A stretch of 45,858 nucleotides of DNA. It comes from Chiloscyllium plagiosum (taxonomy: Eukaryota). The notes beneath the pieces are model-generated. The model made no database searches, was not told the origin of the DNA, and saw only the letters and a program-made list of their open reading frames with translations. The stretch spans positions 4,120,916 through 4,166,773 of the forward strand of contig NC_057754.1 of assembly GCF_004010195.1 (NCBI RefSeq), read 5' to 3'. Below are positions 1 through 45,670 of this stretch, one piece after another. How positions within the stretch are numbered: the first letter of the stretch is position 1; every line of letters begins with the position of its first letter. Made by a program: the position numbers and the translations under genes.

Positions 1-3000
1 AAGGGAGTGCCTCACAGTTGGAAGGTCAGTATGGAGGGAGTGCCACACTGTCAGAAGGTTAGTACGGAGGGAGTGCCTCACTGTCGGAAGGTCAGTACTG
101 AGGGAGTGCCACACCTTTCGAATGTCAGTACGGAGGGAGTGCCTCACTGTTGGAAGGTCAGTATGGAGATTCCCCCACTTTTGGAAGGTCAGTACGGAGG
201 GAGTGCCTCACTGTTGGAAGGTCAGTACTGAGGGAGTGCCTCACTGTTGGACGGCCAGTACGGCGGGAGTGCCTCACTGACAGAAGGTCAGTATGGGGTG
301 CGTGCCTCACTGTCGGAAGGTCAGTACTGAGGGAGTGCCTCACCTTTCGAATGTCAGTACGGAGGGAGTGCCTCACTGTTGGAAGGTCAGTACTGAGGGA
401 GTGCCTCACTGTTGGAAGATCAGTAATAAGGGAGTGCCTCACTGTTGGAAGGTCAGTATGGAGGGAGTGCCTCACTGTCAGAAGGTCAGTACGGAGGGAG
501 TGCCTCACTGTCGGAAGGTCAGTCCTGAGGAAGTGCCTCACCTTTCGAATGTCAGTACGGAGGGAGTGCCTCACTGTTGGAAGGTCACTACAGAGGGAGT
601 GCCTCACTGTCGGAAGGTCAGTACGGAGCGAGTGCCTCACTGTCGGAAGGTCAGTACTGAGGGAGTGCCTCACCTTTTGAATGTCAGTACGGAGGGAGTG
701 CCTCACCTTTGGAAGGTCAGTACGGAGGAAATGCCTCACGGTTGGAAGGTCAGTATGGAGATTCCCCCACTTTTGGAAGGTCAATACGGAGGGAGTGTCT
801 CACTGTTGGAAGGTCAGTACTGAGGGAGTGCCTCACTGTTGGACGGCCAGTACGGCGGGAGTGCCTCACTATAGGAAAGTCACTAAGGAGGGATACCCTC
901 ACTATTGGAAGGTCAGTATGGAGAGTCCCTTACTGTTGGAAGGTCAATACAGAGGGAGTACCTCACTATTGGAAAGTCACTAAGGATGGAGACCCTCACT
1001 ACTGGAAGGTCAGTATGGAGAGTCCCTCACTATTGGAAGGTCAGTACAGAGGATGTGCCTCACTATTCGAAGGTCAGTACGGAGGGAATTCCTCACCATT
1101 GGAAATTCAGTACGGATGGAGAGTCTCACTTTTGGAAGGTCAGTGCGGAAGGAGTGCCTCACTATTGGAAGGTCAGTACAAAGGGAGTGCCTCACTGTTG
1201 GAAGGCCACTACGGAAGATGTGCCTCATTGTTGGAATGTGAGTACGGAGGGTGTGCCTCACTGTTGTCAGGTCAGTACGGAGGGTGTGCCTCAATGTCGG
1301 AAGATCAGTACGGAGGGAGTGCCTCACTGTTGGAAGGTCAGTAATGAGGGAGTGCCTCACTGTTGGAAGGTCAGTACGGAGGGAGTGCCTCACTGTCGGA
1401 TGGTCAGTACTGAGGGAGTGCCTCACTGTTGGAAGATCAGTAATAAGGGAGTGCCTCACTGTTGGAAGGTGGAAGGTCAGACCAGAGGGTGTGCCTCAAT
1501 ATTCAAAGGTCAGTACGGAGGGAGACCCTCACCATTGGAAATTCAGTACGGATGGAGTGTCTCACTTTTGGAAGGTCAGTGCGGATGGAGTGCCTCACTG
1601 TTACAAAGTCAGTATGGAGGGTGTGCCTCACTATTGGAAAGTCAGTAAGGAGGGAGGCCCTCACTGTTGGAAGTACAATACGGAGGGAGTGCCTCACTGT
1701 TGGAAGGTCAGTACGGAGGAAGGACCTCACTGTTACAAAGTCAGTACAGAGGGAGTGCCTCACTATTGGAAAGTCAGTACGGAGGGAGGCCCTCATTGTT
1801 GGAAGTACAATACGGAGCGAGTGCCTCACTGTTGGAAGGTCAGTACTGAGGGAGTGCCTCACTGTTGGAAGGTCAGTACGGAGGAAATGCCTCATTGTTA
1901 CAAAGTCAGTACGGAGGGTGTGCCTCACTATTGGAAAGTCAGTACGGAGGGAGGCCCTCACTGTTGGAAGTACAATACGGAGCGAGTGCCTCACTGTTGG
2001 AAGGTCAGTACAGAGTGAGTGCCTCCCTCTTGGAAGGTCAGTACGGAGGGTGTGCATCACTATTGGAAGGAAAGTACGTAGGGAGTGCCTCACTGTTGGA
2101 AGATCAGTACTGAGGGAGTGCCTCACTGTTGGAAGATCACTACGATGGGAATGCCTCACTGTTGGAAGGCCAGTACGGAGGGAGTGCCTCACTGTCGGAA
2201 GGCCAGTATGGAGCGAGTGCCTCACTGTCGGAAGGTCAGTACTGAGGGAGTGCCTCACCTTTTGAATGTCAGTACGGAGGGAGTACCTCACTGATGGAAG
2301 GTCAGCACGGAGGGAGTGCCTCACTGTTGGAATGTCAGTACGGAGGGAGTGCCTCACCTTTGGAAAGTTAGTACAGAGGGAGTGCCTCACCATTGGAAGG
2401 TCAGTACGGAGGGAGTGCCTCACTGTTGGCAGGTCAGTATGGAGGGAGTGCCTCACTGTTGGAAGATCAGTAATAAGGGAGTGCCTCACTGTTGGAAGGT
2501 CAGTATGGAGGGAGTGCCTCACTGACAGAAGGTCAGTATGGAGTGAGTGCCTCACTGTCGGAAGGTCAGTACTGAGGGAGTGCCTCACCTTTCGAATGTC
2601 AGTACGGAGGGAGTGCCTCACTGTTGGAAGGTCAGTACGGAGGGAGTACCTCACTGTTGGAAGATTAGTAATAAGGGAGTGCCTCACTGTTGGAAGGTCA
2701 GTATGGAGGGAGTGCCTCACTGTCGGAAGGTCAGTACTGAGGGAGTGCCTCACCTTTTGATTGTCAGTACGGAGGGAGTACCTCACTGTTGGAAAGTCAG
2801 TACTGAGGGAGTGCCTCACTGTTGGAAGGTCAGTACGGAGGGAGTGCCTCACTGTTGGATGGTCAGTACGGCGGGAGTGCCTCACTATTGCAAAGTCACG
2901 AAGGAGGGAGACCCTCACTATTGGAAGGTCAGTATGGAGAGTCCCTCACTGTTGGAAGGTCAGTACAGAGGGTGTGCCTCACTATTGGAAATTCGGTAGG

Positions 3001-6000
3001 GATGGAATGTCTCACTTTTGGAAGGTCAGTGCGGAAGGAGTGCCTCACTGTTGGACGGTCAGTACGGCGGGAGTGCCTCACTATTGCAAAGTCACGAAGG
3101 AGGGAGACCCTCACTATTGGAAGGTCAGTATGGAGAGTCCCTCACTGTTGGAAGGTCAGTACAGAGGGTGTGCCTCACTATTCAAAGGTCAGTACGGAGG
3201 GAGTCCCTCACCATTGGAAATTCGGTAGGGATGGAATGTCTCACTTTTGGAAGGTCAGTGCGGAAGGAGTGCCTCACTGTTGGAAGGTCAGTACTGAGGG
3301 AGTGCCTCACTATTGGAAAGTCACTAAGGCGGGAGACCCTCACAATTGGAAGGTCAGTACGGAGAGTCCCTCACTGTTGGAAGGTCAATACAGAGGGAGT
3401 ACCTCACTATTGGAAAGTCACTAAGGATGGAGACCCTCACTACTGGAAGGTCAGTACGGAGAGTCCCTCACTATTGGAAGGTCAGTACAGAGGATGTGCC
3501 TCACTATTCGAACGTCAGAACGGGGGGAGTCCCTCACCATTGGAAATTCAGTACGGATGGAGAGTCTCACTTTTGGAAGGTCAGTGCGGAGGGTGTGCCT
3601 CAATGTCGGAAGGTCAGTACGGAGGGAGTGCCTCACTGTTGGAAGGCCACGACAGAAGATGTGCCTCATTGTTGGAATGTGAGTACAGAGGGAGTGCCTC
3701 ACTGTTGTCAGGTCAGTACGGAGGGTGTGCCTCAATGTCGGAAGGTCAGTACGGAGGGAGTGCCTCACTTTCGGATGGTCAGTACTGAGGGAGTGCCTCA
3801 CCTTTGAATGTCAGTACGGCGGGAGTGCCTCACTGTTGTCAGGTCAGTACGGAGGCTGTGCCTCATTGTCGGAAGGTCGGTACGGAGGGAGTGCCTCACT
3901 GTCGGAAGATCAGTACGGAGGGAGTGCCTCACTATTGGAAGGTCATTACTGAGAGTCCCTCCCTGTTGGAAGGTCAGTACGGAGGGAATGCCTCACTGTT
4001 GGAAGATCAGTACTGAGGGAGTGTCTCACTATTGGAAGATCAGTACGGAGGGAGTGCCTCACTGTTGGAAGATCAGTCTTGAGGGACTGCCTCACTGTTG
4101 GAAGATCAGTCCTGAGGGAGTGCCTAACTGTTGGAAGGTCAGGACAGAGCGCGTGCCTCCCTCTTGGAAGGTCAGTATGGAGGGTGTGCATCACTGTTGG
4201 AAGGTAAGTACGTAGGGAGTGCCTCATTGTTGGAAGATCAGTACTGAGGGAGTGCCCCACTGTTGGAAGATCAGTACGGAGGGAATGCCTCACTGTTGGA
4301 AGATTAGTACGGAGGGAATGCCTCACTGTTGGAAGATCAGTACGGCGGGAATGCCTCACTGTTGGAAGGTCAGTACGGAGCGAGTGCCTCCCTCTTGGAA
4401 GGTCTGTACGGAGGGTATGCATCACTATTGGAAGGTAAGTACGTTAGGGAGTGCCTCACTGTTGGAAGATTAGTACTGAGGGAGTGCCTCACTGTTGGAA
4501 GATCAGTACGGAGGGAGTACCTCACTGTTGGAAGATCACTACGAAGGGAATGCCTCACTGTTGGAAGGCCAGTACGGAGGGAGTGCCTCACTGTCGGAAG
4601 GTCAGTACGGAGCGAGTGCCTCACTGTCGGAAGGTCAGTACGGAGGGAGTGCCTCACCTTTGGAAAGTAAGTACAGAGGGAGTGCCTCACTAGTGGAAGG
4701 TCAGTACGGAGGGAGTGCCTCACTGTTGGCAGGTCAGTACGGAGGGAGTGCCTCACTGTTGGAAGGTCAGTACGGAGAGTCCCTCACTGTTGGAAGGTCA
4801 GTACGGACGGAATGCCTCACGGTTGGAAGGTCAGTACGGAGAGTCCCTCACTTTTGGAAGGTCAGTACGGAGGGAGTGCCTCACAGTTGGAAGGTCAGTA
4901 CTGAGGGAGTGCCTCACCTTTGGAAAGTTAGTACTGAGTGAGTGCCTCACTAGTGGAAGGTCAGTACGGAGGGAGTGCCTCACTGTTAGAATGTCAGTAC
5001 GGAGGGAGTGCCTCACCTTTGGAAAGTTAGTACAGAGGGAGTGCCTCACTCGTGGAAGGTCAGTACGGAGGGAGTGCCTCACTGTTGGCAGGTCAGTCCG
5101 GAGGGAGTGCCTCACTGTTGGAAGGTCAGTACGGAGAGTCGCTCACTGTTGGAAGGTCAGTACGGAGGGAATGCCTCACGGTTGGAAGGTCAGTATGGAG
5201 AGTCTCTCACTTTTGGAAGGTCAGTACGGAGGGAGTGCCTCACATTTGGAAGGTCAGTACTGAGGGAGTGCCTCACAGTTGGAAGGTCAGTACTGAGGGA
5301 GTGCCTCACTGTTGGAAGATCAGTAATAAGGGAGTGCCTCACTGTTGGAAGGTCAATATGGAGGGAGTGCCTCACTGTCAGAAGGTCAGTACGGAGTGAG
5401 TGCCTCACTGTCGGAAGGTCAGTACTGAGGGAGTGCCTCACATTTCGAATGTCAGTACGGAGGGAGTGCCTCACTGTTGGAAGATCAGTACTGAGGTAGT
5501 GCCTCACTGTTGGAAGGTCAGTACGGTGGGAGTGCCTCACTGTCGGAAGGTCAGTACTGAGGGAGTGCCTCACCTTTTGAATGTCAGTACGGAGGGAGTC
5601 CCTCACTGTTGGAAGGTCAGTACTGAGGGAGTGCCTCACTGTTGGAAGGTCAGTAATGAGGGAGTGCCTCACTGTTGGATGGTCAGTACTGAGGGAGTGC
5701 CTCACCTTTGAATGTCAGTACGGTGGGAGTGCCTCACTGTTGTCAGGTCAGTACGGAGGATGAGCCTCATTGTCGGAAGGTCAGTACGGAGGGAGTGCCT
5801 CACTGTCGGAAGGTCAGTACAGAGGGAGTGCCTCACAGTTGGAAGATCAGTACGGAGGAAATGCCTCACTGTTGGAAGATCACTACGAAGGGAATGCCTC
5901 ACTGTTGGAAGATAAGTCCTGAGGGAGTGCCCAACTGTTGGAAGGTCAGTACAGAGTGAGTGCCTCACTGTTGGAAGGTCAGTACTGAGGGAGTGCCTCA

Positions 6001-9000
6001 CTGTCGGAAGGTCAGTACTGAGGGAGTGCCTCATCTTTCGAATGTCAGTACGGAGGGAGTGCCTCACTGTTGGAAGGTCAGTACGGAGGGAGTGCCTCAC
6101 TGTCGGAAGGTCAGTACGGAGCGAGTGCCTCACTGTCGGAAGGTCAGTACTGAGGGAGTGCCTCACCTTTTGAATATCAGTTCGGAGGGAGTACCTCACT
6201 GTTGGAAAGTCAGTACGGAGGGAGTGCCTCACTGTTGGAATGTCAGTATGGAGGGAGTGCCTCACCTTTGGAAAGTTAGTACAGAGGGAGTGCCTCACTA
6301 TTGGTAGGTCAGTACGGAGGGAGTGACTCACTGTTGGAAGGTCAGTACGGAGGGAGTGCCTCACTGTTGGAAGGTCAGTACGGAGGAAATGCCTCACGGT
6401 TGGAAGGTCAGTATGGAGAGTCCCCCACTTTTGGAAGGTCAGTACGGAGGGAGTGCCTCACTGTTGGAAGGTCAGTACTGAGGGAGTGCCTCACTGTTGG
6501 ACGGTCAGTACGGCATGAGTGCCTCACTAGTGGAAAGTCACTAAGGAGGGAGACCCTCACTACTGGAAGGTCAGTACGGAGAGTCCCTCACTATTGGAAG
6601 GTCAATACAGAGGGAGTACCTCACTATTGGAAAGTCACTAAGGATGGAGACCCTCACTACTGGAAGGTCAGTACGGAGAGTCCCTCACTATTGAAGGGCA
6701 GTACAGAGGGAGTGCCTCACTATTCGAAGGTCAGTACGGAGGGAATCCCTCACCATTGGAAATTCAGTACGGATGGAGAGTCTCACTTTTGGAAGGTCAG
6801 TGCGGAGGGAGTGCCTCACTGTTGGAAGGTCAGTACGGAGGGAGTGCCTCACGGTTGGAAGGTCAGTATGGAGAGTCCCACACTTTTCGAAGGTCAGTAC
6901 AGAGGGAGTGCCTCACTGTTGAAAGGTCAGTACTGAGGGAGTGCCTCACTGTTGAAAGGTCAGTACTGAGGGAGTGCCTCACTGTTGGAAGATCAGTAAC
7001 AAGGGAGTGCCTCACTGTTGGACGGTCAGTATGGAGGGAGTGCCTCACTGACAGAAGGTCAGTTCGGAGTGAGTGCCTCACTGTCGGAAGGTCAGTACTG
7101 AGGGAGTGCCTCACTGTTGGAAGATCAGTAATAAGGGAGTGCCTCACTGTTGGAAGGTCAGTACTGAGGGAGTGCCTCACTGTCGGATGGTCAGTACTGA
7201 GGGAGTGCCTCACCTTTGAATGTCAGTACGGCGGGAGTGCCTCACTGTTGTCAGGTCACTACGGAGGGTGAGCCTCATTGTCGGAAGGTCAGTACGGAGG
7301 GAGTGCCTCACTGTTGGAAGGTCAGTACGGAGGGAGTGCCTCACTGTTGGAAGGTCTGTACGGAGGGTGTGCCTCACTATTGGAAAGTCATTACTGACAG
7401 TCCCTCCCTGTTGGAAGGTCAGTACGGAGAGAATGCCTCACTGTTGGAAGATCAGTACTGAGGGAGTGCCTCACTGTTGGAAGATCAGTACTGAGGGAGT
7501 GCCCCACTGTTGGAAGGTCAGTACGGAGGAAGTGCCTCACTGTTACAAAGTCAGTACAGAGGGTGTGCCTCACTATTGGAATGTCAGTACGGAGGGAGGC
7601 CCTCACTGTTGGAAGGTCAGTACGGAGGGAGTGCCTCACTGTCGAATGGTCAGTACTGAGGGAGTGCCTCACCTTTGAATGTCAGTACGGCGGGAGTGCC
7701 TCACCGTTGTCAGGTCAGTACGGAGGGTGAGCCTCATTGTCGGAAGGTCAGTACGGAGGGAGTGCCTCACTGTCGGAAGGTCATTACTGAGAGTCCCGCC
7801 CTGTTGGAAGGTCAGTACGGGAGTGCCTCACTATTGGAAGGACATTACTGAGAGTCCCGCCCTGTTGGAAGGTCAGTACGGAGGGAATGCCTCACTGTTG
7901 GAAGGTCAGTACGGAGGGTGTGCATCACTATTGGAAGGTAAGTACGTAGGGAGTGCCTCACTGTTGGAAGATCAGTACTGAGGGAGTGCCTCACTGTTGG
8001 AAGATCAGTATGGAGGGAATGCCTCACTGTTGGAAGTTCAGAACGGAGGGAATGCCTCACTGTTGGAAGATCAATCCTGAGGGAGTGCCTCACTGTTGGA
8101 AGATCACTACGAAGGGAATGCCTCACTGTTGGAAGGCCAGTATGGAGGGAGTGCCTCACTGTCGGAAGTTCAGTACGGAGCGAGTGCCTCACTGTCGGAA
8201 GTTCAGTACGAAGCGAGTGCCTCACTGTCGGAAGGTCAGTACTGAGGGAGTGCCTCACCTTTTGAATGTCAGTACGGAGGGAGTACCTCACTGATGGAAG
8301 GTCAGTACAGAGGGAGTGCCTCACTGTCGGAAGGTCAGTACAGAGGGAGTGACTCACTATTGGAAGGACATTACTGAGAGTCCCTCACTGTTGGAAGATC
8401 AGTACGGAGGGAATGCCTCACTGTTGGAAGATCAGTCCTGAGGGAGTGCCTCACTATTGGAAGATCACTACGAAGGGAATGCTTCACTGTTGGAAGATCA
8501 GTCCTGAGGGAGTGCCTAACTGTTGGAAGGTCAGTTCAGAGTGAGTGCCTCCCTCTTGGAAGGTCAGTACGGAGGGTGTGCATCACTATTGGAAGGTAAG
8601 TACGTAGGGAGTGCCTCACTGTTGGAAGATCAGTACTGAGGGAGTGCCTCACTGTTGGAAGATCAGTAATAAGGGAGTGCCTAACTGTTGGAAGGTCAGT
8701 ATGGAGGGGGTGCCTCACTGACAGAAGGTCAGTACGGAGTGAGTGCCTCACTGTCGGAAGGTCAGTACTGAGGGAGTGCCTCACCTTTGGAAAGTTAGTA
8801 CAGAGGGAGTGCCTCACTATTGGAAGGTCGGTACGGAGAGTCCCTCACTGTTGGAAGGTCAGTACGGAGGAAATGCCTCACGGTTGGAAGGTCAGTATGG
8901 AGAGTCCCCCACTTTTGGAAGGTCAGTACGGATGGAGTGCCTCACTGTCGGAAGGTCAGTACGGATGGAATGCCTCACTGTTGGACGGTCAGTACGGCGG

Positions 9001-12000
9001 GAGTGCCTCACTGTTGGACGGTCAGTACGGCGGGAGTGCCTCACTATTGGAAAGTCACTAAGGTGGGAGACCCTCACTATTGGAAGGTCAGTATGGAGAG
9101 TCCCTCACTGTTGGAAGGTCAGTACAGAGGGTGTGCCTCACTATTCAAAGGTCAGTACGGAGGGAGTCCCTCACCATTGGAAATTCAGTACGGATGGAGT
9201 GTCTCGCTTTTGGAAGGTCAGTGCGGAAGGAGTGCCTCACTATTGGAAGGTCAGTACGGATGGAGTGCCTCACTGTTGGAAGGTTAATACAGAGGGAGTA
9301 CCTCACTATTGGAAAGTCACTAAGGATGGAGACCCTCACTACTGGAAGGTCAGTACGGAGAGTCCCTCACTATTGGAAGGTCAGTACAGAGGATGAGCCT
9401 CACTATTCGAAGGTCAGTACGGACGGAATCCCTCACCATTGGAAATTCAGTACGGATGGAGAGTCTCACTTTTGGAAGGTCGATGCGGAGGGAGTGCCTC
9501 ACTATTGGAAGGTCAGTACAAGGGGAGTGCCTCACTGTTGGAAGGTCAGTACGGAAGTTGTGCCTCTTTGTTGGAATATGAGTACAGAGGGAGTGCCTCA
9601 CTGTTGTCAGTTCAGTACGGAGGGTGTGCCTCAATGTCGGAAGGTCAGTACGGAGCGAGTGCCTCACTGTTGGAAGGTCAGTAATGAGGGAGTGCCTCAC
9701 TGTTGGAAGGTCAGTACTGAGGGAGTGCCTCACCTTTGAATGTCAGTACGGCGGGAGTGCCTCACTGTTGTCAGGTCAGTACAGAGGGTGAGCCTCATTG
9801 TCGGAAGGTCAGTACGGAGGGAGTGCCTCACTATTGGAAGGTCATTACTGAGAGTCCCTCCCTGTTGGAAGGTCAGTATGGAGGGAATGCCTCACTGTTG
9901 GAAGATCAGTACTGAGGGAGTGCCTCACTGTTGGAAGATCAGTACGGAGGGAATGCCTCACTGTTGGAAGATTAGTACGGAGGGAATGCCTCACTGTTGG
10001 ACGGTCAGTACGGAAGGAGTGCCTCACTATTGGAAAGTCACTAAGGTGGGAGACCCTCACTATTGGAAGGTCAGTATGGAGAGTCCCTCACTGTTGGAAG
10101 GTCAGACCAGAGGGTGTGCCTCAATATTCAAAGGTCAGTACGGAGGGAGACCCTCAACATTGGAAATTCAGTACGGATGGAGTGTCTCACTTTTGGAAGG
10201 TCAGTACGGAGGAAATGCCTCATTGTTACAAAGTCAGTACGGAGGGTGTGCCTCACTATTGGAAAGTCAGTACGGAGGGAGGCCCTCATTGTTGGAAGTA
10301 CAATACGGAGGGATTGCCTCATTGTTGGAAGGTCAGTACGGAGGGAGTCCCTCACTGTTGGAAGTACAATACGGAGGGAGTGCCTCATTGTTGGAAGGTC
10401 AGTACGGATGGAGTGCCTCACTATTGGAAGGTCAGTAAGGAGGGAGGCCCTCACTGTTGGAAGTACAATACGGAGGGAGTGCCTCACTGTTGGAAGGTCA
10501 CTACGGATGGAGTGCCTCACTATTGGAAGGTCAGTAAGGAGTGAGTGCCTCATTGTTGGAAGGTCAGTACAGAGGGAATGCCTCACAATTGGAAAGTCAG
10601 TACAGAGGGAGAGCCTCACTGTCGGATGGTCAGTACTGAGGGATTGCCTGAATGTCGGAAGGTCAGTATGGAGGGAATGCCTCACTATTGGAAAGTCAGT
10701 ACGGAGGGAGTACCTCAATGTCGGAAGGTCAGTACAGAGGGAGAACCTCACTGTTGGAAGGCCAGTACGGAAGGTGTGCCTCATTGTTGGAATATGAGTA
10801 CAGAGGGAGTGCCTCACAGTTGTCACGTCAGTATGGAGGGTGTGCCTCAATGTCGGAATGTCAGTACGGAGGGGGTCCATCACGTTTGGAAGTACAATAC
10901 AGAGGGAGTGCCTCACTGTTGGAAGTAAAACATGGAGGGATTGCCTCACTGTTGGAAGGTCAGTACGGAAGGTGTGCCTCACTATTGGAAGGTCAGTACG
11001 GAGGGAGTGCCTCATTGTTGGAGGGTAAGTACGGAGGGAATGCCTCACTATTGGAAGGTCAGTACGGAGGGAGTGCCTCACTGTCGGATGGTCAGTACGG
11101 AGCGATTGCCTCACTGTTGGAAGGTCAGTATGGAGGAAGTGCCTCATTGTTACAAAGTCAGTACGGAGGGTGTGCCTCACTATTGGAAAGTCAGTACGGA
11201 GGGAGTGCCTCACTGTTAGAAGGTCAGTACGGAGGGAGTGCCTCATTGTTGGAAGGTCAGTACAGAGGGAGTGCCTCACTGTTAGAAGGTCAGTATGGAG
11301 GATGTGCCTCACTATTGGAAGGTTAGTACGGAGGGAGTGCCTCAATGTCAGAAAGTCAGTACGGAAGGAGAGCCTCACTGTCGTAAGGTCAGTACTGAGG
11401 GTGTGCCTCACTATTGGAAGGTCAGTACGGAGGGTGTGCCTCACTATTGGAACTACAATACGGAGGGAGTACCTCACTGTTGGAAGGTCAGTACTGAGGG
11501 AGTGCCTAACTGTTGGAATGTCAGTACGGAGGGAGTGCGTCACCTTTGGAAAGTTAGTACAGAGGGAGTGCCTCACTGTCGGAAGGTCAGCAGGGAGGGA
11601 GTGCCTCATTGTCGGAAGGTCAGTAGGGAGGGTGTGCCTCACAATTGGAAGGTCAGTATGGAGGGAGTGCCACACTGTTGAAAAGTCAGGACAGAGGGAG
11701 TGCCTCACTGTTGGAATGCCAGTACGGAGGGAGTGCCTCACTGTTGGAAGGTCAGTACTGAGGGAGTGCCTCACTGTTGGAAGGTCAGTACGGAGGGAGT
11801 CCATCACGTTTGGAAGTACAATACGGAGGGAGTGCCTCATTGTTCGAAGTAAAATACGGAGGGAATGCCTCACTGTTGGAAGGTCAGTTTGGAGGGTGTG
11901 CTTCACTGTTGGAAGGTCAGTACAGCGGGAGTGCCTCACTGTTGGAAGGTCAGTACGGAGAGTCAGTAGGGAGGGAGTGCCTCACTGTTGGAACTACAAT

Positions 12001-14225
12001 ACGGAGGGAGTGCCTCACTATTGGAAGGTCAGTATAGAGGGAGAGCCTCACTGTCGGAAGGTGAGTAAGGAGGGAGTGCCTCACTGTCAGAAGGTCAGTA
12101 CGGAGGGAGTGCCTCACTGTCGGAATGTCAGTACGGAGGAAGTGCCTCACCTTTGGAATGTCAGTACTGAGGGAGTGCCTCACTATTGGAACTACAATAC
12201 GGAGCGAGTGCCTCACTGTTGGAAGGTCAGTACTGAGGGAGTGCCTCACTGTTGGAAGGTCAGTACTGAGGGTGTGCCTCACTGTTGGAAGGTCAGTACG
12301 GAGGGAGTGCCTCACTGTTGGAAGGTCAGTACGGAGGGAATGCCTCATTGTTAGAAAGTCAATACTGAGGGAATGCCTCATTGTTAGAAAGTCAATACTG
12401 AGGGAATGCCTCACTGTTGGAAGGTCAGTACTGAGGGAGTGACTCACTGTTGGAATGTCATTACGGAGAGTATGCCTCACTTTTGGAAGGTCAGTACGGA
12501 GGGAGTGCCTCACTATTGGAAGGTCAGTACGGAGTGTCCCTCCCTGTTGAAAGGTCAGTACGGAGGGAATGCCTCACTGTTGCCAGGTCATTACGGAGGG
12601 AGTGCCTCACTATTGGAAGGTCAGTACTGAGGGAGTTCCTAACTGTTGGAAGGTCAGTAAGGAGGGAGTGCCTCACTGTTGGAAGGTCAGTACGGAGGGA
12701 GTGCCTCACTGTTGGAAGGTCAGTAGGAAGGAGGGAGTCCATCACGTTTGGCAGTACAAGACGGAGGGAGTCCATCACGTTTGGCAGTACAAGACGGAGG
12801 GAGTGCCTCATTGTTGGAAGGTCAGTTTGGAGGGAGTGCCTCACTATTGGAAGGTCAGTACGGAGAGTCAGTAGTGAGGGAGTGCCTCACTATTGGAAGT
12901 ACAATACGGAGGGAGTGCCTCACTGTCGGAAGGTCAGTACAGAGGGAGTGCCTCACTGTCGGATGGTCAGTATTGAGGGAGTGCCTCACTGTCGGATGGT
13001 CAGTATTGAGGGAGTGCCCCACTGTTGGAATGTCAGTACAGAGGGTGTGCCTCACTGTTGGAAGGTCAGTACGGAGGGTGTGCCTCACTGTTGGAAGGTC
13101 AGTACAAAGGGTGTGCTTCACTGTCGGAAGGTCAGTACAAAGGGTGTGCTTCACTGTCGGAAGGTCAGTACGGAGGGAGTGCCTCACTGTTGGAAGGTCA
13201 GTACGGAGGGAGTTCCTCACTGTTGGAAGGTCAGTACGGAGGGAGTGCCTCACTGTCGGAAGGTGAGTACGGAAGGAGTGCTTCACTGTTGGAAGATCAG
13301 TACGGAAGGAGTGCCTCACTGTTGGAAGGTCAGTACAAAGGGTGTGCTTCACTGTCGGAAGGTCAGTACGGCGGGAGTGCCTCACTATTGGGAGTTCATT
13401 ATGGAGGGAGTGCCTCATTGTTGGAAGGTCAGTACGGAGGGAATGCCTCACTATTGGAAAGTCAGTACGGAGGGAGTGCCTCAATGTCGGAAGGTCAGTA
13501 CAGAGGGAGTGCCTCATTGTCGGATGGTCAGTACGGAGGGAGTGTCTCACTATTGGAAGGTCAGTACTGAGGGAGTGCCTCATTGTTGGAAGGTCAGTAC
13601 GGAGGGTGTGCCTCACTGTCGGAATGTCAGTGAGGAGGGAGTGCCACCCCGTTGGAAGGTCAGTAGGAGGGAGTGCCTCACTATTGGAAGGTCAGTACGG
13701 AGGGAGTTCCTCACCTTTGGAATGTCAGTGAGGAGGGAGTGCCACCCCGTTGGAAGGTCAGTAGGAGGGAGTGCCTCACTATTGGAAGGTCAGTACGGAG
13801 GGAGTTCCTCACTGTTGGAAGGTCAGTACGGAGGGAGTGCCTCACTGTCGGAAGGTGAATACGGAAGGAGTGCTTCACTGTCGGAAGATCTGTACGGAGG
13901 GAGTGCCTCACTGTCTGATGGTCAGTACGGAGGGAGTGCCTCACTGTCGGAATGTCAGTAGGGAGGGAGTGCCTCACTGTCGGAAGGTCAGTACGGGGGG
14001 AGTGCCTCATTGTTAGAAAGTCAGTACTGAGGGAATGCCTCACTGTTGGAAGGTCAGTACGGAGGGAGTGCCTCACTGTTGGAAGGTCAGTACGGAGGGA
14101 GTGCCTCACTGTTGGAAGGTCAGTATGGAGGGAGTGCCTTATTGTTAGAAAGTCAGTACTGAGGGAGTGCCTCACTGTTTGAAGGTCAGTATGGAGGGAG
14201 TGTCTCAGTGTTGGAAGGTCAGTAC
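1..14225. repeat. Giant 33-bp minisatellite, consensus about GAGGGAGTGCCTCACTGTTGGAAGGTCAGTACG, roughly 430 units, open at the left window edge
   Basis: Unit repeats continuously; 11-codon periodicity in all frames (EGVPHCWKVST / RECLTVGRSVR / GSASLLEGQYG); occasional 31-bp variants (ggagagtccctcac) shift the frame. Confidence 0.98.
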
Positions 14226-14795
14226 ATTGGGACAGACAGTGCTAAGATAGTGCTGCACTGTCAGAGAATCAATGCTGAGGGATTGTTGCATTATGGTGCA
14301 GTTAATAGTATTGGGGGAAGGGGGTATTAGTTTGCTCAGTTGACTGGACAGCTAGTTTACAATGATACCAACAGGATGGTTTCAGTTTCCATACTGGCTG
14401 AGGTTACCATGAATGATTCTCCTTCTCAACCTCTCCCTTTGCCTGAGATGAGGTGATCCACAGGATAAAGCAATCACCAATCATCTCTCTCTCTCTAATA
14501 AGAGAGCAGCCCCAGGGTCTGGTAAGATTATGGTGACTTTACCTTTGTTACTGAGGAAGTGCTGCACAGTTGGAGGGGCAGAATTGAAGACACTATATTG
14601 TAAAGGGAAACAGTATTGAGGGAAGGCTGAAAGATTGGAGGGACAGTAAGTAAGCACAGTTTGAGAGCTCTGTACTATGGAACGCTACACTATCAGAGGG
14701 ACAATACTGATGGAGCACTGTACCGGCAGAGGAACAATATTGAGAAACCTTTGCCTTGTCAGAGGGATAGTACTGAAGGAGCACCACACTCTAGG
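14226..14795 (+). repeat. Older, degenerate continuation of the 33-bp array, interrupted by a SINE
   Basis: Recognisable units such as gtgctgcactgtcagag, actgaggaagtgctgcacagttggagg and cagagggatagtactgaaggagc. Confidence 0.75.
14322..14545 (+). mobile_element. tRNA-derived SINE of unassigned family; second copy at 41883-42095
   Basis: A-box-like gctcagttg head; shares the 3' end ggtctggtaagattatgg..actttacctt and a (CT)n tract with the 41.9-42.1 kb copy. Confidence 0.7.
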
Positions 14796-14799
14796 GAGC

Positions 14800-15391
14800 A
14801 GCTATACATAGAACAGTCGATCTTGCGTAATTACACCGGCACCACTGCCCACCTCTTCCTCCGCTACATTGATGACTGCATTGGCGCCACCTCATGCTCC
14901 CGCGAGGAGGTTGAGCAATTCATCAACTTCACCAACACATTCCACCCTGACCTTAAATTTACCTGGACCATCTCTGACACCTCCCTCCCCTTCCTGGACC
15001 TCTCCATCTCCTTTAATGACGACCGACTTGACACTGACATTTTCTACAAACCCACCGACCCACAGCTACCTGGATTACACCTCTTCCCACCATACCTCTT
15101 GCAAAAATGCCATCCCGTACTCCCAATTCCTCCGCCTCCGCCGTATCAACTCCCAGGAGGAGCGGTTCCACCATAGAACACACCAGATGGCCTCCTTCTC
15201 TAGAGACCGCAATTTCCCTTCCCACGTGGTTAAAGATGCCCCCCAACGCATCTCATCCACATCCCGCAATTCCGCCCTCAGACTCAACCCCTCCAACCGC
15301 AACAAGGACAGAACGCCCATGGTGCTCACCTTCCACCCTACCAACCTCCGCATAAACCAAATCATCCGCCGACATTTCAGCCACCTCCAAA
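14800..15391 (+). mobile_element. Penelope-like element (Neptune-type) reverse transcriptase fragment, 5'-truncated and frameshifted
   Basis: FLRYIDD catalytic motif, LPFLDL and FYKPTD; after a frameshift near 15059, HSYLDYTSSH..CKNAIPYSQFLRLRRI, typical of the PLE RT thumb. Confidence 0.9.
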
Positions 15392-16100
15392 NNNNNNNNN
15401 NNNNNNNNNNNNNNNNNNNNNNNNNNNNNNNNNNNNNNNNNNNNNNNNNNNNNNNNNNNNNNNNNNNNNNNNNNNNNNNNNNNNNNNNNNNNNNNNNNNN
15501 NNNNNNNNNNNNNNNNNNNNNNNNNNNNNNNNNNNNNNNNNNNNNNNNNNNNNNNNNNNNNNNNNNNNNNNNNNNNNNNNNNNNNNNNNNNNNNNNNNNN
15601 NNNNNNNNNNNNNNNNNNNNNNNNNNNNNNNNNNNNNNNNNNNNNNNNNNNNNNNNNNNNNNNNNNNNNNNNNNNNNNNNNNNNNNNNNNNNNNNNNNNN
15701 NNNNNNNNNNNNNNNNNNNNNNNNNNNNNNNNNNNNNNNNNNNNNNNNNNNNNNNNNNNNNNNNNNNNNNNNNNNNNNNNNNNNNNNNNNNNNNNNNNNN
15801 NNNNNNNNNNNNNNNNNNNNNNNNNNNNNNNNNNNNNNNNNNNNNNNNNNNNNNNNNNNNNNNNNNNNNNNNNNNNNNNNNNNNNNNNNNNNNNNNNNNN
15901 NNNNNNNNNNNNNNNNNNNNNNNNNNNNNNNNNNNNNNNNNNNNNNNNNNNNNNNNNNNNNNNNNNNNNNNNNNNNNNNNNNNNNNNNNNNNNNNNNNNN
16001 NNNNNNNNNNNNNNNNNNNNNNNNNNNNNNNNNNNNNNNNNNNNNNNNNNNNNNNNNNNNNNNNNNNNNNNNNNNNNNNNNNNNNNNNNNNNNNNNNNNN
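15392..16100. other. Assembly gap (709 N) inside the Penelope-like element
   Basis: Run of N. Confidence 1.
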
Positions 16101-16205
16101 CGAAACGTCAATTTTACTGCTCCTTGGATGCTGGCTGAACTGCTGTGCTCTTCCAGCACCACTAATCCAAAATCTGGTTTCCAGCATCTGCAGTCATTGT
16201 TTTTA
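16101..16205 (+). mobile_element. 3' terminal repeat of the Penelope-like element, starting at CGAAACGTC (3' half of a hammerhead core)
   Basis: Follows the RT and gap on the same strand; closely matches the arms of the inverted element at 40347-40519 (tgctgtgctcttccagcaccac; ggtttccagcatctgcagtcattgttttta). Confidence 0.75.
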
Positions 16206-16206
16206 T

Positions 16207-16600
16207 CTATACTGGAAGTGCTGCATGTCAGAACCCAGTACTGAGGGAGCACTGCACTGTCGGAGGGTCAGTACTAAAGGAACATTGCAATGTAATGAGA
16301 GGTTGTACTAAGGGAGTGTTGCATTATCAAAAAGGGCAGTACTGAAGGAATGCAATACTGTCAGAATTCCATCTTTTAGATGAGATGTTAACTGAACCTC
16401 TGCCCGTCCCCTCAAAGTGTGTATTAAATATGCCATAGTATGATTTGGAAGAAGAGAAAGATAGTTCTCTTTAGTTTCCTGAGTTCATATTTATCCAAAT
16501 ATGAACTCAGGAAGAAACTCCTTATCTTCTTCCTGGAATCTTGCTGTAGACATAGTACCTGACATTTTGATGTGAAGCATGTTGAATGTTGTCTGCAAAA
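16207..16600 (+). mobile_element. Deu-domain SINE (SacSINE1-like) whose 5' part consists of degenerate 33-bp array units
   Basis: cagtactgagggagcactgcactgtcggagggtcagtact units run into ccatcttttagatgagatgttaa...gaagaagag...tatttatcc...tcttgctgt, colinear with the SINE copies at 27-29 kb. Confidence 0.7.
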
Positions 16601-16637
16601 GGTCGATTTTGTTTTAAAAATTGCATATCCTGCTAAG

Positions 16638-16670
16638 TGCAATTCCCTGTTCACCCCAGAAGGTGGCACT
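16638..16670 (+). promoter_or_regulatory. Candidate CTCF site (upstream module plus core)
   Basis: TGCAATTCC-N9-CCAGAAGGTGGCAC resembles the CTCF upstream module and CCASYAGRKGGCRS core at plausible spacing. Confidence 0.55.
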
Positions 16671-17211
16671 TGCAGCCAACCTCAGGAAAATCTAATGACA
16701 GTCCTTTCACCTGTTTTTAAAAAGACAAACTGGATTGTTTTTAAAAATAAAGTGAAACAGATCTTTCTTTTGCAGCCTTCTGAACCCCAGAACAAACTAA
16801 AGCACTTCACAGCCAATGAAGTACACTTAAAGTGTAGTCTCTATTGTAATGTAGGAAGAGAAAAATTATCCTGTTCTTCTTCCTGTGTGAGTCATGAGAT
16901 CCTTTAAATTAGCTGCAATTAAACAGCCTCAATTTAATAGCTCAATCTGAAACAAAGGATCCTCCAACAATGGAGCAGTGCCTCAGCACTGCACTACAGT
17001 TTGGATCATTTGAATCTCAGTCTGCACTTGTAAAACTGACAACACAGGGTTCAACATGAGACATGATTCCTCAATTGGACATGTTTAATGATAACCCTGA
17101 GTGTGTGAAGAATTAAACTGACAAACAGATTAGAATTGTCAGTTGGGCTCACAGTGTGATGCACTTGTGTGGATTGGAAGCTACATAAATGAATATGCAG
17201 GGCACTGTTTT

Positions 17212-17490
17212 ATTAGATTAGATTACTTACAGTGTGGAAAAGGCCCTTCGGCCCAACAAATCCACACTGACCCACCGAAGCGCAACCCACCCAGACCCAT
17301 TCCCCTATATTTACCCCTTCACCTAACACTATGGGCAATTTAGCACGGCCAATTCACCTAACCTGCACATTTTTGGATTGTGGGAGGAAACCCACGCAGA
17401 CACAGGGAGAATGTGCAAACTCCATACAGAGAGTCGCCTGAGGCGGGAATTGAACTCGGGTCTCTGGCGCTGTGAGGCAGCAGTGCTAAC
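17212..17490 (-). mobile_element. HE1-like V-SINE (shark)
   Basis: Reverse strand reads gttagcactgctgcctcacagcgccagagacccgagttcaattcc (tRNA head with B box), a central V-domain and a CR1-like tail ending in (ctaat)n. Confidence 0.88.
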
Positions 17491-25039: not shown

Positions 25040-25610
25040 TATTACCAGCCCTGTTCTCTAAGGGGCCTAATTTCAACTGGCCTCTCCTTTCCCTGTTATG
25101 TATTTAACAATGTTCTTATTGTCCATTTTTATATTACTTGCCAGTTTAAAAAAATTATTTTCTCCCTTTTTATTATTAGTAGTCATCTTTTGATTAGATT
25201 AGATTAGATTCCCTACAGTATGGAAACAGGCCCTTCGGCCCAACAAATACACACTGACCCTCCGAAGAGTAACCCACCCAGACCCAATGCACCTAACACT
25301 ATGGGCAACTTAGAATAGCCAATTCACCTGACCTGCACATCTTTGGACTGTGGGAGGAAACCAGAGCAGCCGGAGGAAACCCATGCAAAAGTTTTTTAAA
25401 ACTTGCCCAATCCTTTGGTTTACCACCAATCTTTGCCACATTGTATTTTTTTTAATCTTTCAATTTGTTATTATCCTTAACTTCCTTGGCTAACCATGGT
25501 TGGTTTATTATCTTCCTCAAATCCTTCTTCCTCACTGGAATGTATCTTTGTTATGAGTCATGAGTTATTTCTTAAAAGTCTGCCACTGTTCTTCATCCAT
25601 CTTTTCAGCT
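25040..25610 (-). mobile_element. CR1 ORF2 upstream fragment
   Basis: Reverse strand encodes a QPWLAKEVKD-like segment at ~25475-25505. Confidence 0.6.
25192..25388 (-). mobile_element. 5'-truncated HE1-like SINE
   Basis: (attag)n tail and body highly similar to 17212-17400. Confidence 0.85.
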
Positions 25611-27169: not shown

Positions 27170-27550
27170 GTATGCAGTGTTCTCTCTGCATCAGAAATTC
27201 ATGGGTTCATGTCCTTGAACCCCATAATCTGGGTTGACATTCCCTAGTGCCATTATGAAGAGAGTCCTGAATTCTTGGAGGGGGTCATTTTTGGAAAGGA
27301 TATTAAACCTTTCTCAAGTTCCCACAGCCACTCTTTCAGTATGGAGCCAGGGAGTTTTCAGCTGTGCACTGGTCCAATACTTATCCTTTAACCAACATTA
27401 CTAAAATAGATTGCAGTCTGTAGAATCTTGGTGTACAGAGTTGGCTGCCATATTTCTGAAATTATAACAGTCACAATACCTCAAGTAAAGTACTTCGTTA
27501 GCTGTTAAGTGCATTGAAACAATCTGAGGTTGTGAAAGGCACTAGAACAC
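27170..27550 (+). mobile_element. Deu-domain SINE (SacSINE1-like), degenerate
   Basis: ttatcctttaaccaacattactaaaa, ttggctgcc, aagtacttc, tgaggttgtgaaaggcacta tail. Confidence 0.7.
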
Positions 27551-28344
27551 AATTCCACTCTTTGAAAGACACCACAAAACTTGCTGCATTCAATTTACTA
27601 ATTATATTTTTCCTGCTAAATACAAGAAGGGGGATATAGAAGAGGAATGCAGGAGACAGACAGTTGAGAATAGAGAGAAAAAGACGACAGGAGTAGAGAT
27701 GTTGGGAATGCACATTCATTACTGATTGATCAGGACTGTTCTTTCAATCCTGCAGCAGGGGTTAATAAGATGTGCAGCTTTATGGTAATACAAGAGAGCT
27801 TGGAATGGATGTGTGTCTGTTGGGCCCTTGTCCACATGAGCCAGTCCCTGGGGGTGGGGGACGGAGGAGTTGCAGGGGAGGGTGGTTGAACAGACTGTCG
27901 TACAGCCTCTAGCCAGATGCAAATCAGCCAAAACACACAGGAGGGATGAAAGAGGTCGTGTGCCATGCAGACTTTTTATTGTGTGTGTGTGTATGTGTGC
28001 GCATCAAAGCAGCACTCCATTTAATCGTCTCTCCTTAAGCCATGGCAAAGTGAGGGTCTTGTAAACACTTCTAATCGACCAGACTCTCATGTTTGAGGTT
28101 GTTGAGCTGTTTCATAGGTTATAAGATTCCCTCCACCCCCAACCAACCCCATCCACTGCCTTGTGTCCCACTGTATTTACTGACAAATTAAATCCACATA
28201 AATAAAATTTATTTTACTGCCAGGCTTATTCAAATTCACTATCCATGCCCTGTGTCTAATGGAGTGACAGGATATATTTACACTTCACGGGGTGAGGATG
28301 GGGGTGGAGGGCACTTGTAGAATCTTGATATGCACACAACAAAA

Positions 28345-28695
28345 GAAAGTCTTTTATTTAGATAGTGCATTTCATAACCTCAGGATGTCCCAAAGCGCTT
28401 TACAACCAATGAAGCAGCTTTGTTTCTGGATGCGTGGCTGCTCTTGCAGTGTAGGAACTGTGACAGTCAATCTGCATACCACAAACTCCCACAGTGATGT
28501 GATAATAACCAGATAATCTGTTCTTGGTTGAAGGATAAATATTGGCCCCAGGACACTGGGGAGGACTCCCTGCTTCTCTTCCAGTAGCGGCATGGGATCT
28601 TTTACGTGCATGTGTTGGGGGCAGGCCTTGGTTTAACATCACATCCGAAAGATGGCACCTCCAACAGTGCAGCATTCCCCGAGCACTGTCACTGC
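28345..28695 (-). mobile_element. Deu-domain SINE (SacSINE1-like), best preserved copy
   Basis: Reverse strand: gaatgctgcactgttggaggtgccatctttcggatgtgatgttaaacc...gtaaaagatcccatg...cattggttgtaaagcgctttgggacatcctgagg. Confidence 0.82.
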
Positions 28696-29099
28696 TTGGA
28701 TTGCTTCTGAATTGAGGCTTGAGCCCATGATCTCAGAGTGGAAGACAGAGAAATCAACAAATTCATTCATAGACAATATATTTCGATATTTATCTTATTT
28801 TTCTTTGTGAGTTCAAGTTGACTCTTTTGCAATCTCTAATAAGACTTTTTTTGTCACCTTATGGAATGTCTGGTACTTGTTTCATAACAGAATTGTACAT
28901 GAATGGTGCAAGAATGAATTGAATACAGCATTGGGGAGAGATTTCAGTACAGACTTTATGGGCTGCTGTCAAGCCCATTTGAGACACACAAGTCTTCTCG
29001 AATTCAAAAGTAAATCAGAATGCAGTCTTGGGTTGGGCTAGACTTGTATAGGATCCATCTGCCCTGCTAAAGTATTCTGAGCTTACTCTCTCTTGCTGT

Positions 29100-29560
29100 T
29101 CAGACCCAGGAGGTCATGGGTTTGAGTTCCACTTCAGAGGTCTGAGGATGCAGGGTGTGCTGCATCGTAGGAGATGCAATCTCGTAAATAAGGCATTGAA
29201 CCCAGATCTCCTCTACCTTCTCAGACAGATGTAAAACATATCTATCACACTAAGAAGAGCAGGAATTCTCCCAGGTGTGCTGGGATAAAGCACTTTTCCC
29301 TCAACCAACTTCATGGAAAGAAAAAAAATATAGAAATTGCTGAGTAAGCTCATTAGATCTGGCAGCATCTGTGAAATCACAGTTAACATTTTGGGTCAAG
29401 TGATGCTTCCTCAGAGCAAGCTGGGGGATCTTGCTGTGCACAATATGGTTAACATGTTTCCTGCACTTCTACAGTGAACATGATGCAAAAGGACTTAATT
29501 GGCTATAAAACACTTGCGAGACATCCTGAGGTGGTGAAAGGTGCAGCATAAATGCATTTT
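29100..29560 (+). mobile_element. Deu-domain SINE with a nested Penelope-terminus fragment (~29330-29416, -)
   Basis: Colinear with the 28345-28695 copy; central part interrupted by gaaattgctgagtaagctc..tctggcagcatctgtg..ttcctcagag. Confidence 0.7.
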
Positions 29561-30479: not shown

Positions 30480-31255
30480 TCAATATTTATCTCACTCTTT
30501 CTCCAACTATTTCTTCTCTTTCTTTGCATTTGTCAGTCTCTTGCTTGTTTCTTACTGTTCTGTCTTTCTCTTCCTCGCGTGTGATCTCTCCCCTTTCTGT
30601 TGTTCATTTTCTTTCTCCCTTTCTCCATTCCTTAGAAATAAGTCACTCTCTCCTCTCCTTACTCTATCGCATGTCCTTCCTCTCTCTATCTCTTTACTTT
30701 TGTATCTCTCTGTTTCTGGTTGCCTGCCTGCCTTTTCTTGCCCTCTCTGTCAGTCTCTGTGTCAGACTCCATATCTCTGTAAGTCTCTTTTTCTCTTTTC
30801 TCTTTCCTTTCTTTCAGAATGTGCTATCTCAATTTCTCTATTTCCTCTCTCGAACTCAATCAGCCCCCTTCTCTCTCTCTCTCTTTTCTTTCAGACTGTT
30901 TTACCGCCATCTCTGTATTTCACTCTAATTTCGTCAGTCCCTTTCTTTTTCCTTTCTTTCAGCGTGTGTTATCTCTTTCGCTCTATTTCCTCTTTAATTC
31001 TGTCAGTCCCTTTCTTTCGGTGTGTGTAATCTCCATCTTTATTTCCTCTCTAAATCAGTCAGTCCCTTTATCTCTCTCTCCTCTTTCGGTGTGTTATCTC
31101 CATCTTTCTATTTCCTCTCTCTAATTCTCAGTCCCTTTTTTTCTTTTTCTCCTTTCTATCGATGTGTGTTAACTACATCTCTCTATTTCCTCTCTAATTC
31201 TGTCAGTCCCTTTCTCTCTCACTCTCTCTGTCAGTTTCTCTCTCCCGCTCTCGGC
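30480..31255. repeat. CT-rich tract containing a degenerate ~60-75 bp tandem repeat (about 6 units, 30815-31230)
   Basis: Recurrent ctatttcctct..taatt..gtcagtccctttct..gtgtgttatctc. Confidence 0.8.
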
Positions 31256-31842: not shown

Positions 31843-32982
31843 ATGCCCCGAGGCTTTCTGGTGAAGAGAACCAAGAGAGCTGCCCCTGTCTCATACAGGG
31901 TACGCAGCGTCGAAGAGGAATGGGGCGTTCCAGAGGCAGTGCCGTCCCTATGGGGGCAGGGGAGGGCCTCTCTACATCCCACCTCCTCCACTGACATTAG
32001 GCCGGGATACTGTGGAGTGCCAAGCTCCCCTTGCGCCCCGGACCGCAGCCCTAACCGGCCAGTCAGCAGTTGCCCTGGCTCCCCAGGTCGGCCAGGCAAT
32101 TCCAGCTCGCCTATCCTGGCGGAATCCTTCCCCAGCCCCTTGGCTCTGGCTTCGTCGCTGGGACGAGCGGTCTTCGTGGCCTCGGTGTCAGATGAGGAGG
32201 TGAAGATGGGCTCCAATTGTACCAGCATCCAAGCGGTCAAGAGGCAACTGCCTCCGGCCAAAGCCAAGGTGCAGAGCAAGAAGCCTAGGGCGGACAGGAA
32301 GCCTTACAGGGACGAGGTGACCACTTCACCGGTCTTGGGGCTAAGGATCACCAAAGAGCTGACGGACTATCAGCAGCACAAGAGCTCAGGTCAGCCCCTG
32401 GGTGAGTTCATCTGCCAGCTGTGTAAGGAGGAATACGCCGACGCCCTGTCCCTCGCCCAGCACCGGTGCTCCAGAATCGTCCGGGTGGAGTATCGCTGCT
32501 CCGAATGTGACAAGGTGTTCAGCTGTCCGGCCAACCTGGCATCTCACTGCCGCTGGCACAAGCCCAGGAACCCCAGCGGCCTGCAAGCGCAAGAGGGGGC
32601 CAAGGAGAGCAACAAGAGCAAAGCCAGGAGTGAGGAGCAGCCGGCCAGCCCCTCAGGCCGGCCTTGCGAGTCGCCTAGCCTGGAAGAAGAGCTGTTCGAC
32701 TGCCCGCTCTGCGGTAAGAAGTTCCGTCGCCAAGCCTACCTCAGGAAGCACATGGCCACTCACCGAGGCTCCATGCTGCTGTCAGGCGGCCAAGTGTACC
32801 TCCAGCGGCCCCAGAGGAAGCCTGACGTTAGCTCGCACTCAGGACTCGCCTGCTCAGGTTCTGATGGGCTCCCTGAGGCATCCTTCTCCCCCTGCCAGGT
32901 CCTCAGCAATGGCAAGTGTCAGCCCTTGGAGAACAGGCAAGTGATGCTGCTGCAGCTGTCCACGGCGCCGGCGGTGATGTGA
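31843..32982 (+). CDS. INSM1: Insulinoma-associated (INSM1/INSM2-family) SNAG-domain zinc-finger transcription factor, intronless, 379 aa; exact paralogue uncertain
   Basis: N-terminal SNAG MPRGFLVKR..PVSYRVR; DEVTTSPVLGL; fingers FICQLCKEEY..AQHRC, YRCSECDKVFSCPANLASHCRWH and FDCPLCGKKFRRQAYLRKHMATH; C-terminal ENRQVMLLQ; purine at -3 (AAGATG). Confidence 0.95.
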   Translation: MPRGFLVKRTKRAAPVSYRVRSVEEEWGVPEAVPSLWGQGRASLHPTSSTDIRPGYCGVPSSPCAPDRSPNRPVSSCPGSPGRPGNSSSPILAESFPSPLALASSLGRAVFVASVSDEEVKMGSNCTSIQAVKRQLPPAKAKVQSKKPRADRKPYRDEVTTSPVLGLRITKELTDYQQHKSSGQPLGEFICQLCKEEYADALSLAQHRCSRIVRVEYRCSECDKVFSCPANLASHCRWHKPRNPSGLQAQEGAKESNKSKARSEEQPASPSGRPCESPSLEEELFDCPLCGKKFRRQAYLRKHMATHRGSMLLSGGQVYLQRPQRKPDVSSHSGLACSGSDGLPEASFSPCQVLSNGKCQPLENRQVMLLQLSTAPAVM

Positions 32983-36539: not shown

Positions 36540-37112
36540 TGTGTGCATCCCAGTGTTAGCTCCTGTACATGTAAAGTACATATAACAGATAAACATAACA
36601 AATAAAAGTGAACAATTCACTCCTGCCCTGTATTGTATGGCTTATCTCTATGTCAGGTCCTGTGCATGTACAGTACAGGTCCTGTGCAGGTAAAAGGAAA
36701 TGATTCACTCCCATCTGGCACAAAATGGTCCTTGAGCATCTCAGTATCAGCTCCAATATATGTACAGTACACTCTAGAAAAAGCGAACAATGCACTCAGC
36801 CTTGTACGGTGTGTGTCTCAGTGTCAGCTCCTGTACATGTATAATATACACAGCAGGTAAATGGGAATGATTCACTCTGTCTAGTACTGCACAACACCTG
36901 TGTGTGCCACATACGTTAGAACAGGTGTCATGCACACAGCAGGTAAACGGGAATGATTCACTCCATTTATTACTGTACAGCATCTGAGTGTGCGAGATAT
37001 ATTAGATCAGGGTTAACACACATAGAAGATAAATGGATTGATTCACTCCAGCTAGTACTGTACAACACCTGAGTGTGCCAGCTACGTTATTACAGGCGTA
37101 GTAAACACAGCG
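36540..37112. repeat. Degenerate ~86-bp tandem repeat, about 6 units
   Basis: cagcaggtaaa.gggaatgattcactc at 36851 and 36937, with variants at 37023 and ~36685. Confidence 0.8.
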
Positions 37113-45668: not shown

Positions 45669-45670
45669 AC

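Follow-up and report, generated by a model that had tools for sequence, protein, structure and literature searches.

The long array that opens the 45,858-nt stretch of Chiloscyllium plagiosum DNA analysed here (hereafter the window) is built from a 33-bp unit whose derivation from the middle of an old SINE is confirmed by sequence comparison. We consider it likely that the whole forms a non-coding SINE-derived minisatellite locus, which arose through the steps proposed below and is one member of an abundant shark family. Indeed, tandems of the ancestral-type unit constitute a large family that is abundant across the genome of the window's own species (species A) and occurs in related species as well, at least three in total when A is counted with its relatives B and C (all three possess the flank of the locus), so that the array locus represents one family member. 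The parts of the locus and the dispersed SINE copies of the window are as follows.

1..14219, + strand: young array of the derived variant, 431 units of 33 bp, with CTC at unit positions 18-20 and A at position 30.
14220..14236, + strand: out-of-register stub of 17 nt between the young array and the worn units; the junction is also present in species B.
14237..14317, + strand: two worn ancestral-type units and a partial one (7.8 bits, above 60 of 60 shuffles).
14318..14546, + strand: second SINE-like element inside a unit; left boundary approximate, multi-copy depth.
14546..14801, + strand: about eight worn ancestral-type units at 33-bp spacing (10.4 bits).
14802..14807, + strand: left copy of a 6-bp target-site duplication, CTATAC.
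14808..16206, + strand: Penelope-like element, 5'-truncated, with broken RT-like frames, an N gap and a hammerhead-like motif.
16207..16212, + strand: right copy of the target-site duplication, CTATAC.
16213..16369, + strand: remainder of the interrupted unit, then four further units of the ancestral type (11.1 bits).
16370..16559, + strand: 3' portion of the host SINE, continuing the last unit in register; extreme 3' tail unrecognisable.
16776..17058, - strand: dispersed SINE copy with a single unit at 16959-16991; in the profile.
27173..27559, + strand: dispersed SINE copy with a single unit at 27251-27283; in the profile.
28352..28761, - strand: dispersed SINE copy with one unit at 28656-28688; reference copy, in the profile.
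29092..29556, + strand: dispersed SINE copy, interrupted, with a single unit at 29144-29176; 5' part in the profile.

The initial annotation had likened the array unit to a single-copy segment of the SINE at 28656-28688 (- strand). This pair agrees at 23 of 33 ungapped positions, a value reached by 1 of 50 shuffles of non-array sequence, and it is thus borderline by itself, so that a stronger test was needed. A profile HMM (401 positions) was therefore built from the four dispersed SINE copies of the window and from no part of the array or its edge. The 33-bp unit occupies positions 75-107 of this profile, which matched the sequence inside 1-14230 157 times (best E 4e-4). Scores reached 6.3 bits for two array units, 7.8-11.1 bits for the three worn blocks and 17.0 bits for 16370-16600, each exceeding all 60 shuffles; the resemblance therefore holds beyond the pair first named, and 16370-16600 is SINE body, as had been read. 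In addition, 16335-16559 aligned in one piece and in register to model positions 74-289 (E 3.3e-8), the last unit being followed directly by the SINE body, which bears out the earlier statement that the worn edge runs into a SINE. The profile also recovered an independent fifth SINE copy at 37584-37789 (- strand, E 5e-16), which was omitted from the junction count given its poor alignment across the unit region. Viewed as an sSat-type repeat, the locus has a unit that corresponds by homology to a SINE segment and is shorter than the full element (33 bp against 401), 432 tandem units plus about 15 worn ones where at least four are expected, and a terminal unit that continues into the rest of the SINE at the 3' side (16335-16559), the 5' side lying beyond the window. 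A SINE that captured the unit of an older satellite, or a coincidental likeness with the tail merely adjacent, would sit well with the borderline score of 28656-28688 taken alone (23/33, 1/50 shuffles), but we regard this as very improbable, since unit and tail align in register as one piece; moreover, the homology across positions 7-255 that Table 1 of PMC5499810 gives for SacSINE1 and coelacanth LmeSINE1 would cover the unit if the SINE is SacSINE1-like, and the segment would then predate sharks.

The host SINE may be SacSINE1-like, a candidate name that fits the description of SacSINE1 in PMC5499810. The dispersed copies have a common 3' end, and in three of them visual inspection showed a B-box-like motif upstream of the unit. 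Neither ARAGORN nor Rfam matched a tRNA-derived head in the window, the head of the array-bearing copy falling outside it, and Rfam returned 0 matches at gathering and five weak, chance-level ones at the array edge. The earlier designation as a Deu-domain SINE stands on a likeness to BivaMD-SINE1 recognised by eye: just after the unit, the copy at 28352-28761 (- strand) agrees with BivaMD-SINE1 at 23 of 27 aligned bases with a 2-base gap, and a second likeness was seen at the GCACG...AAAGA block. According to the sections of PMC4824008 concerned, the matched stretch is the Deu part of the bivalve BivaMD-SINE1, which is missing from BivaMeta-SINE1. With the SacSINE1/DeuSINE superfamily, as presented in parts of PMC5499810 and PMC4824008, the copies appear to share a tRNA-like head remnant and a Deu-like core, along with a length of ~400 bp and the character of old high-copy dispersed elements in a shark-type genome. 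The literature text searched describes no internal tandem in SacSINE1, whereas the SINE of the array locus carries one.

At its right side, the homogeneous array passes into degenerate units as initially described, with worn units at 14237-14800 and ~16207-16369 (~15 in all). Eight positions in these regions agree with the unit at 19 or more of 33 bases, while shuffles give 2.9 per ~62,000 positions. The best-kept edge unit (16236-16268) lies 3 differences from the rebuilt ancestral unit, its neighbours showing 6-15, and was possibly refreshed through gene conversion from the genome-wide family. The proposal that this edge took SINE and Penelope insertions is also upheld. Indeed, the element at 14318-14546 has an A/B-box-like head (by eye), and its part 14398-14546 matches 41949-42097 at 79% (E 4e-27), while the insert at 14808-16206 is bounded by the 6-bp CTATAC duplication. 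This insert is probably a Penelope-like element and its CTGATGA...CGAAAC motif a hammerhead-like one; the motif, at the 3' end of the insert, was read from loose ends of reads together with the window and is cut by the gap. Atlas features (0.92-0.96) and HTH_animal/RVT_1 clusters mark an RT-like fragment in the insert; a second RT-like fragment had no Atlas match, Pfam and PDB gave nothing for the insert, and its endonuclease region would fall within the gap. The read depth over the insert is thousands-fold and ends near 14805 and 16205. The assembly gap itself (709 N, 15392-16100) stands between array and SINE tail, which are presumably contiguous across it; the gap does not break the argument, since it lies inside the Penelope-like insert, and this insert is very high-copy at either end. 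Similar Penelope-like 3' ends (compare 16101-16208) occur in inverted pairs at 40347-40520 and 45675-45858. About 15 kb to the right of the array's SINE tail, the window also holds an INSM1-like zinc-finger frame of 379 aa (31843-32982, + strand; PDB INSM1 E 1.7e-57, C2H2 fingers).

Concerning the young array, TRF run on the window reported a 33-bp period with 431.9 copies at 2-14225, and wrap-around parsing gave 432 units, 313 of them distinct, each ~3-4 differences (~10%) away from the consensus. The size of 14 kb is a minimum, as the left end falls outside the window. The array had been called homogeneous, which is true in a relative sense: units differ from each other by 6.0 of 33 positions on average. 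Twelve blocks of 7-15 units reappear at distant places of the array, a pattern that unequal exchange would produce. A fixed higher-order period is absent from the array (lag means of 5.5-6.1 against 6.0 overall), and the plot of unit divergence against position proposed in the initial annotation displayed no gradient (rho -0.05, p 0.32). The long open frames of the array were rejected as coding, since indels switch the frames and no true relatives were found. The window is rich in other minisatellites: a second tandem family at 43241-45671 has a 33-bp unit plus 26/27/60/87-bp variants, did not match the SINE profile at E 10 and shares a single 9-base stretch with the first array, and more worn tandem repeats are present at 36540-37111 (86-bp units) and 30797-31252 (56-77-bp units).

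The derived variant differs from the CCGCAC form of the family at four places, two of which are fixed (T19 in 415 and A30 in 409 of the 431 units), while the old base is kept in 84 and 73 units at the other two. It had been suggested that a variant changed from CTGCAC to CCTCAC then expanded massively; the later expansion of a derived variant stands, but the edge is abrupt, and the variant probably arose through the CCGCAC subtype of the family, which is one change away from CCTCAC rather than two. A CGC core occurs in 2 of 431 array units. The passage to the derived variant consists of the 17-nt stub, with no gradient and no intermediates. This abrupt out-of-register junction, together with the lack of the TGC core in the array (0/431) and of T19 or G7 in the worn units (0/13), would agree with a young CCTCAC array imported from another locus onto old units by ectopic recombination or break-induced replication. 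We nevertheless hold such an import to be quite improbable, as the distance of the array units from the ancestral unit is not smaller than under a local clock, and no strong step-back joint at 14150-14225 appeared among the 15 joints listed (1,039 others; a weak point). Mean distances to the rebuilt ancestral unit (of 33) are 8.4 for the array, 8.8 for the four SINE copies and 10.8 for the 13 worn units, the latter mean being ungapped and including a misaligned unit at 14579 (21 differences) without which it is 10.0. These similar distances fit local descent, with one old locus and one clock.

The order of events can be read from the related species, for which 4 of the 23 listed read/contig runs were compared with 14150-17300. 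Both relatives have orthologues of the SINE tail and of the units next to it, with 30 differences over 984 positions in B and 38 over 992 in C. One contig of species C spans 14253-14806 and then leaves the window with 45 unaligned letters; as it contains the second SINE-like element, that insertion is older than the split from C. The left Penelope junction is crossed by A and B contigs and the right one by a B contig. The Penelope-like element was probably inserted only after C had split off, and the contig stop in C would reflect an empty site. In addition, a B contig covers 14156-14280 with 6 differences and thus crosses the edge of the young array, which therefore predates the A-B split.

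The initial annotation had viewed the locus as a record of satellite birth at one SINE copy, a view that is not supported in that form, since the ancestral-type tandem is abundant genome-wide and in two relatives, and the array locus may have received a ready-made tandem. The raw reads examined for species A number 12,895,792. In 3,883 of them (0.030%) position 16268 is joined to 16236, which corresponds to a step back by 33 bases, and in 8,353 (0.065%) loose letters stand ahead of 16236 and yield, as their consensus, another unit of the ancestral type (agreement 0.79). By comparison, one locus of 14.2 kb would account for ~76 reads. With a read depth of 0.01-1.4 over the unique flank (16376-16799), the ancestral-type tandem amounts to ~1-2 Mb (0.4-2.5 Mb over plausible depths; ~1.2-2.5 Mb at 0.5-fold). 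Note that these reads cannot separate many small loci from few giant arrays, so the number of loci is not set by the counts, and that the young consensus, alike to the ancestral-type unit at 26 of 33 positions, is below the 88% threshold of read matching. The loose-end consensus was identical from 259 (A), 150 (B) and 243 (C) contigs, with both CTGCAC and CCGCAC forms present, and the majority of the 13 worn units rebuilds this same unit. Another very high-copy SINE, which we take to be the shark V-SINE HE1, was observed at 17212-17490, 25198-25390 and 39590-39900 (depth > 30,000 at 17224-17300).

The family also surfaces in predicted proteins. Indeed, P0001 and P0002, two proteins unrelated to each other and from other contigs, end in the unit translation beside different non-repeat sequence; the front of P0001, perhaps a ZFYVE1 exon, had no match in Pfam or PDB. 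The search with the array frame gave 1 match among 8,000 scored candidates, and that with the P0001 repeat part 2 among 1,360. HMMER returned 973 matches; among the 151 examined, 7 had a 7/11 match and runs of the unit were confined to P0001 and P0002, the derived WKV-type unit being absent from those protein matches. The tandem-junction pattern had 0 matches in metagenome and viral contigs, and the single-unit pattern had 1 in metagenome contigs and 0 in viral and genome contigs. A 28-base match to a CCGCAC-type unit and junction in a bacterial-looking metagenome contig (L001, 472-499, - strand), with no SINE or array around it, was left aside as chance, chimera or contamination.

Concerning the origin of the tandem, the unit in the SINE copies is preceded by AGTG-like bases and followed by GTG-CC, a 4-bp direct repeat 33 bp apart that is decayed in the copies, and a stem-loop over the unit folds in 3 of 4 copies with modest scores (z -2.9, -1.7 and -1.3; the fourth +0.95). 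The first duplication may have occurred by slippage or unequal exchange at this GTGC-type direct repeat, aided by the stem-loop; slippage at short flanking repeats is the model of Haber and Louis, as summarised in passages of PMC6947457 and PMC3389668. Ancestral-type tandems then became abundant genome-wide (~1-2 Mb, at least three related species). At unit positions 32-33, the four SINE copies read TG, TG, GG and AT, whereas G at position 32 is found in 7 of 13 worn units, in 355 of 432 array units and in the family, position 33 varying among the worn units. A plain duplication would leave T32, the base of 2 of 4 SINE copies, while the family has G. This difference favours a single founder, transmitted with the SINE or through gene conversion, although the comparison draws thinly on four old SINE copies. 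Alternatively, in a multiplied form of the local birth first proposed, many SINE copies, including that of the array locus, could each have duplicated the same 33-bp segment in place with no spread of a founder. The short direct repeat and stem-loop bracketing the unit suit such a hotspot, as do the worn units, which are as far from the ancestral unit as the dispersed copies (10.8, ungapped, against 8.8 of 33), and tandem-duplication hotspots exist in AluS according to section 3.3 of PMC3389668. We judge this unlikely, because plain duplication predicts GGAGGTG joined to CAGTAC while the three species and P0001/P0002 present GGAGGG(T/A) joined to CAGTAC, and because the genome-wide units are at least 88% alike whereas the SINE copies of the window are far more diverged.

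Under the founder reading, most arrays would share the founder junction, having spread through tandem-bearing SINE copies or through gene conversion between SINEs, and the array locus would be one of these tandems with the SINE 3' half retained. The units beside the SINE tail evidently left turnover and decayed; they took the second SINE and later the Penelope-like element. Further left, a two-change variant would have taken over by repeated unequal exchange and block duplication up to an abrupt junction, a takeover apparently in place before the A-B split. We propose no function for the array, which behaves as selfish or neutral repeat DNA.

More tentatively, and on balance doubtfully, a SacSINE1-like subfamily with an internal 33-bp tandem might seed minisatellites as it moves, behaving like an SVA-type VNTR-SINE mobilised by its LINE partner. 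Thousands of arrays in shark genomes would then have been founded in this way, with each one developing a variant of its own and some growing past 14 kb, and a measurable part of the tandem DNA reported to be enriched on small shark chromosomes would stem from this subfamily. SVA-type composite retroposons carry an internal VNTR and would be an analogue if the tandem-bearing shark SINE moves as a unit, its mobility here being hypothetical; in contrast to SVA, no target duplication is visible around the whole shark locus, whose left end is outside the window. If this seeder reading were true, its many arrays would serve as natural replicates in which the birth, polarity and death of minisatellites could be studied. 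For shark genomes, small chromosomes are reported to be richer in simple tandem repeats, with no families named in the relevant part of 10.1101/2022.10.17.512540.

For sharks, the locus is a clear instance of the conversion of a SINE into a satellite: its unit is short, the abundance reaches the megabase scale, and its layers can be ordered through related species. Independent hotspot arrays versus spread with the element, as well as the rate at which edges drop out of homogenisation, are now testable. Note that long open frames in such arrays leak into gene models (as in P0001 and P0002), with no new function indicated. We found no earlier description of this shark family in the literature searched, although Repbase, Dfam, subscription journals or supplements may contain one.

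Satellites that derive from SINEs have known precedents in reptiles and mammals. Short internal SINE segments arranged head to tail are found in Alu-derived human minisatellites, mostly of two units (Ahmed and Liang 2012, in parts of PMC3389668), and in the mouse B1-derived VNTR family of Bois et al. 1998 (as cited in PMC6947457); these resemble the shark locus also in their hotspots and in the flanking direct repeats proposed as seed, and a joint spread of tandem and element has been proposed for LTR12 (PMC3389668). The shark unit differs from the Alu and B1 cases by its share of the reads (0.03-0.065%) and by a single array of more than 14 kb. The closest parallel in the texts consulted is offered by the squamate SINE-derived satellites sSat1-3 (Vassetzky et al. 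2023, PMC10702118), in which an internal SINE segment is in tandem, with up to ~950-1,200 units, snake loci of 320 and ~950, and one unit common to snakes. Systematic records of SINE-to-satellite conversion are known from squamates only, and the Discussion of that paper leaves its occurrence elsewhere open; sharks, hairpins and microhomology have 0 occurrences in the portion of its text searched. The shark array and the squamate sSats, especially snake sSat3, are alike in having an internal-segment tandem whose terminal unit runs into the SINE, hundreds of units per long locus, a unit common across species and locus-specific subvariants. They differ in unit length (~70-290 bp in squamates against 33 bp in the shark array), in the shark unit being without the tRNA B box, in the Deu-like nature of the shark SINE and in the datable insertions within the worn edge.
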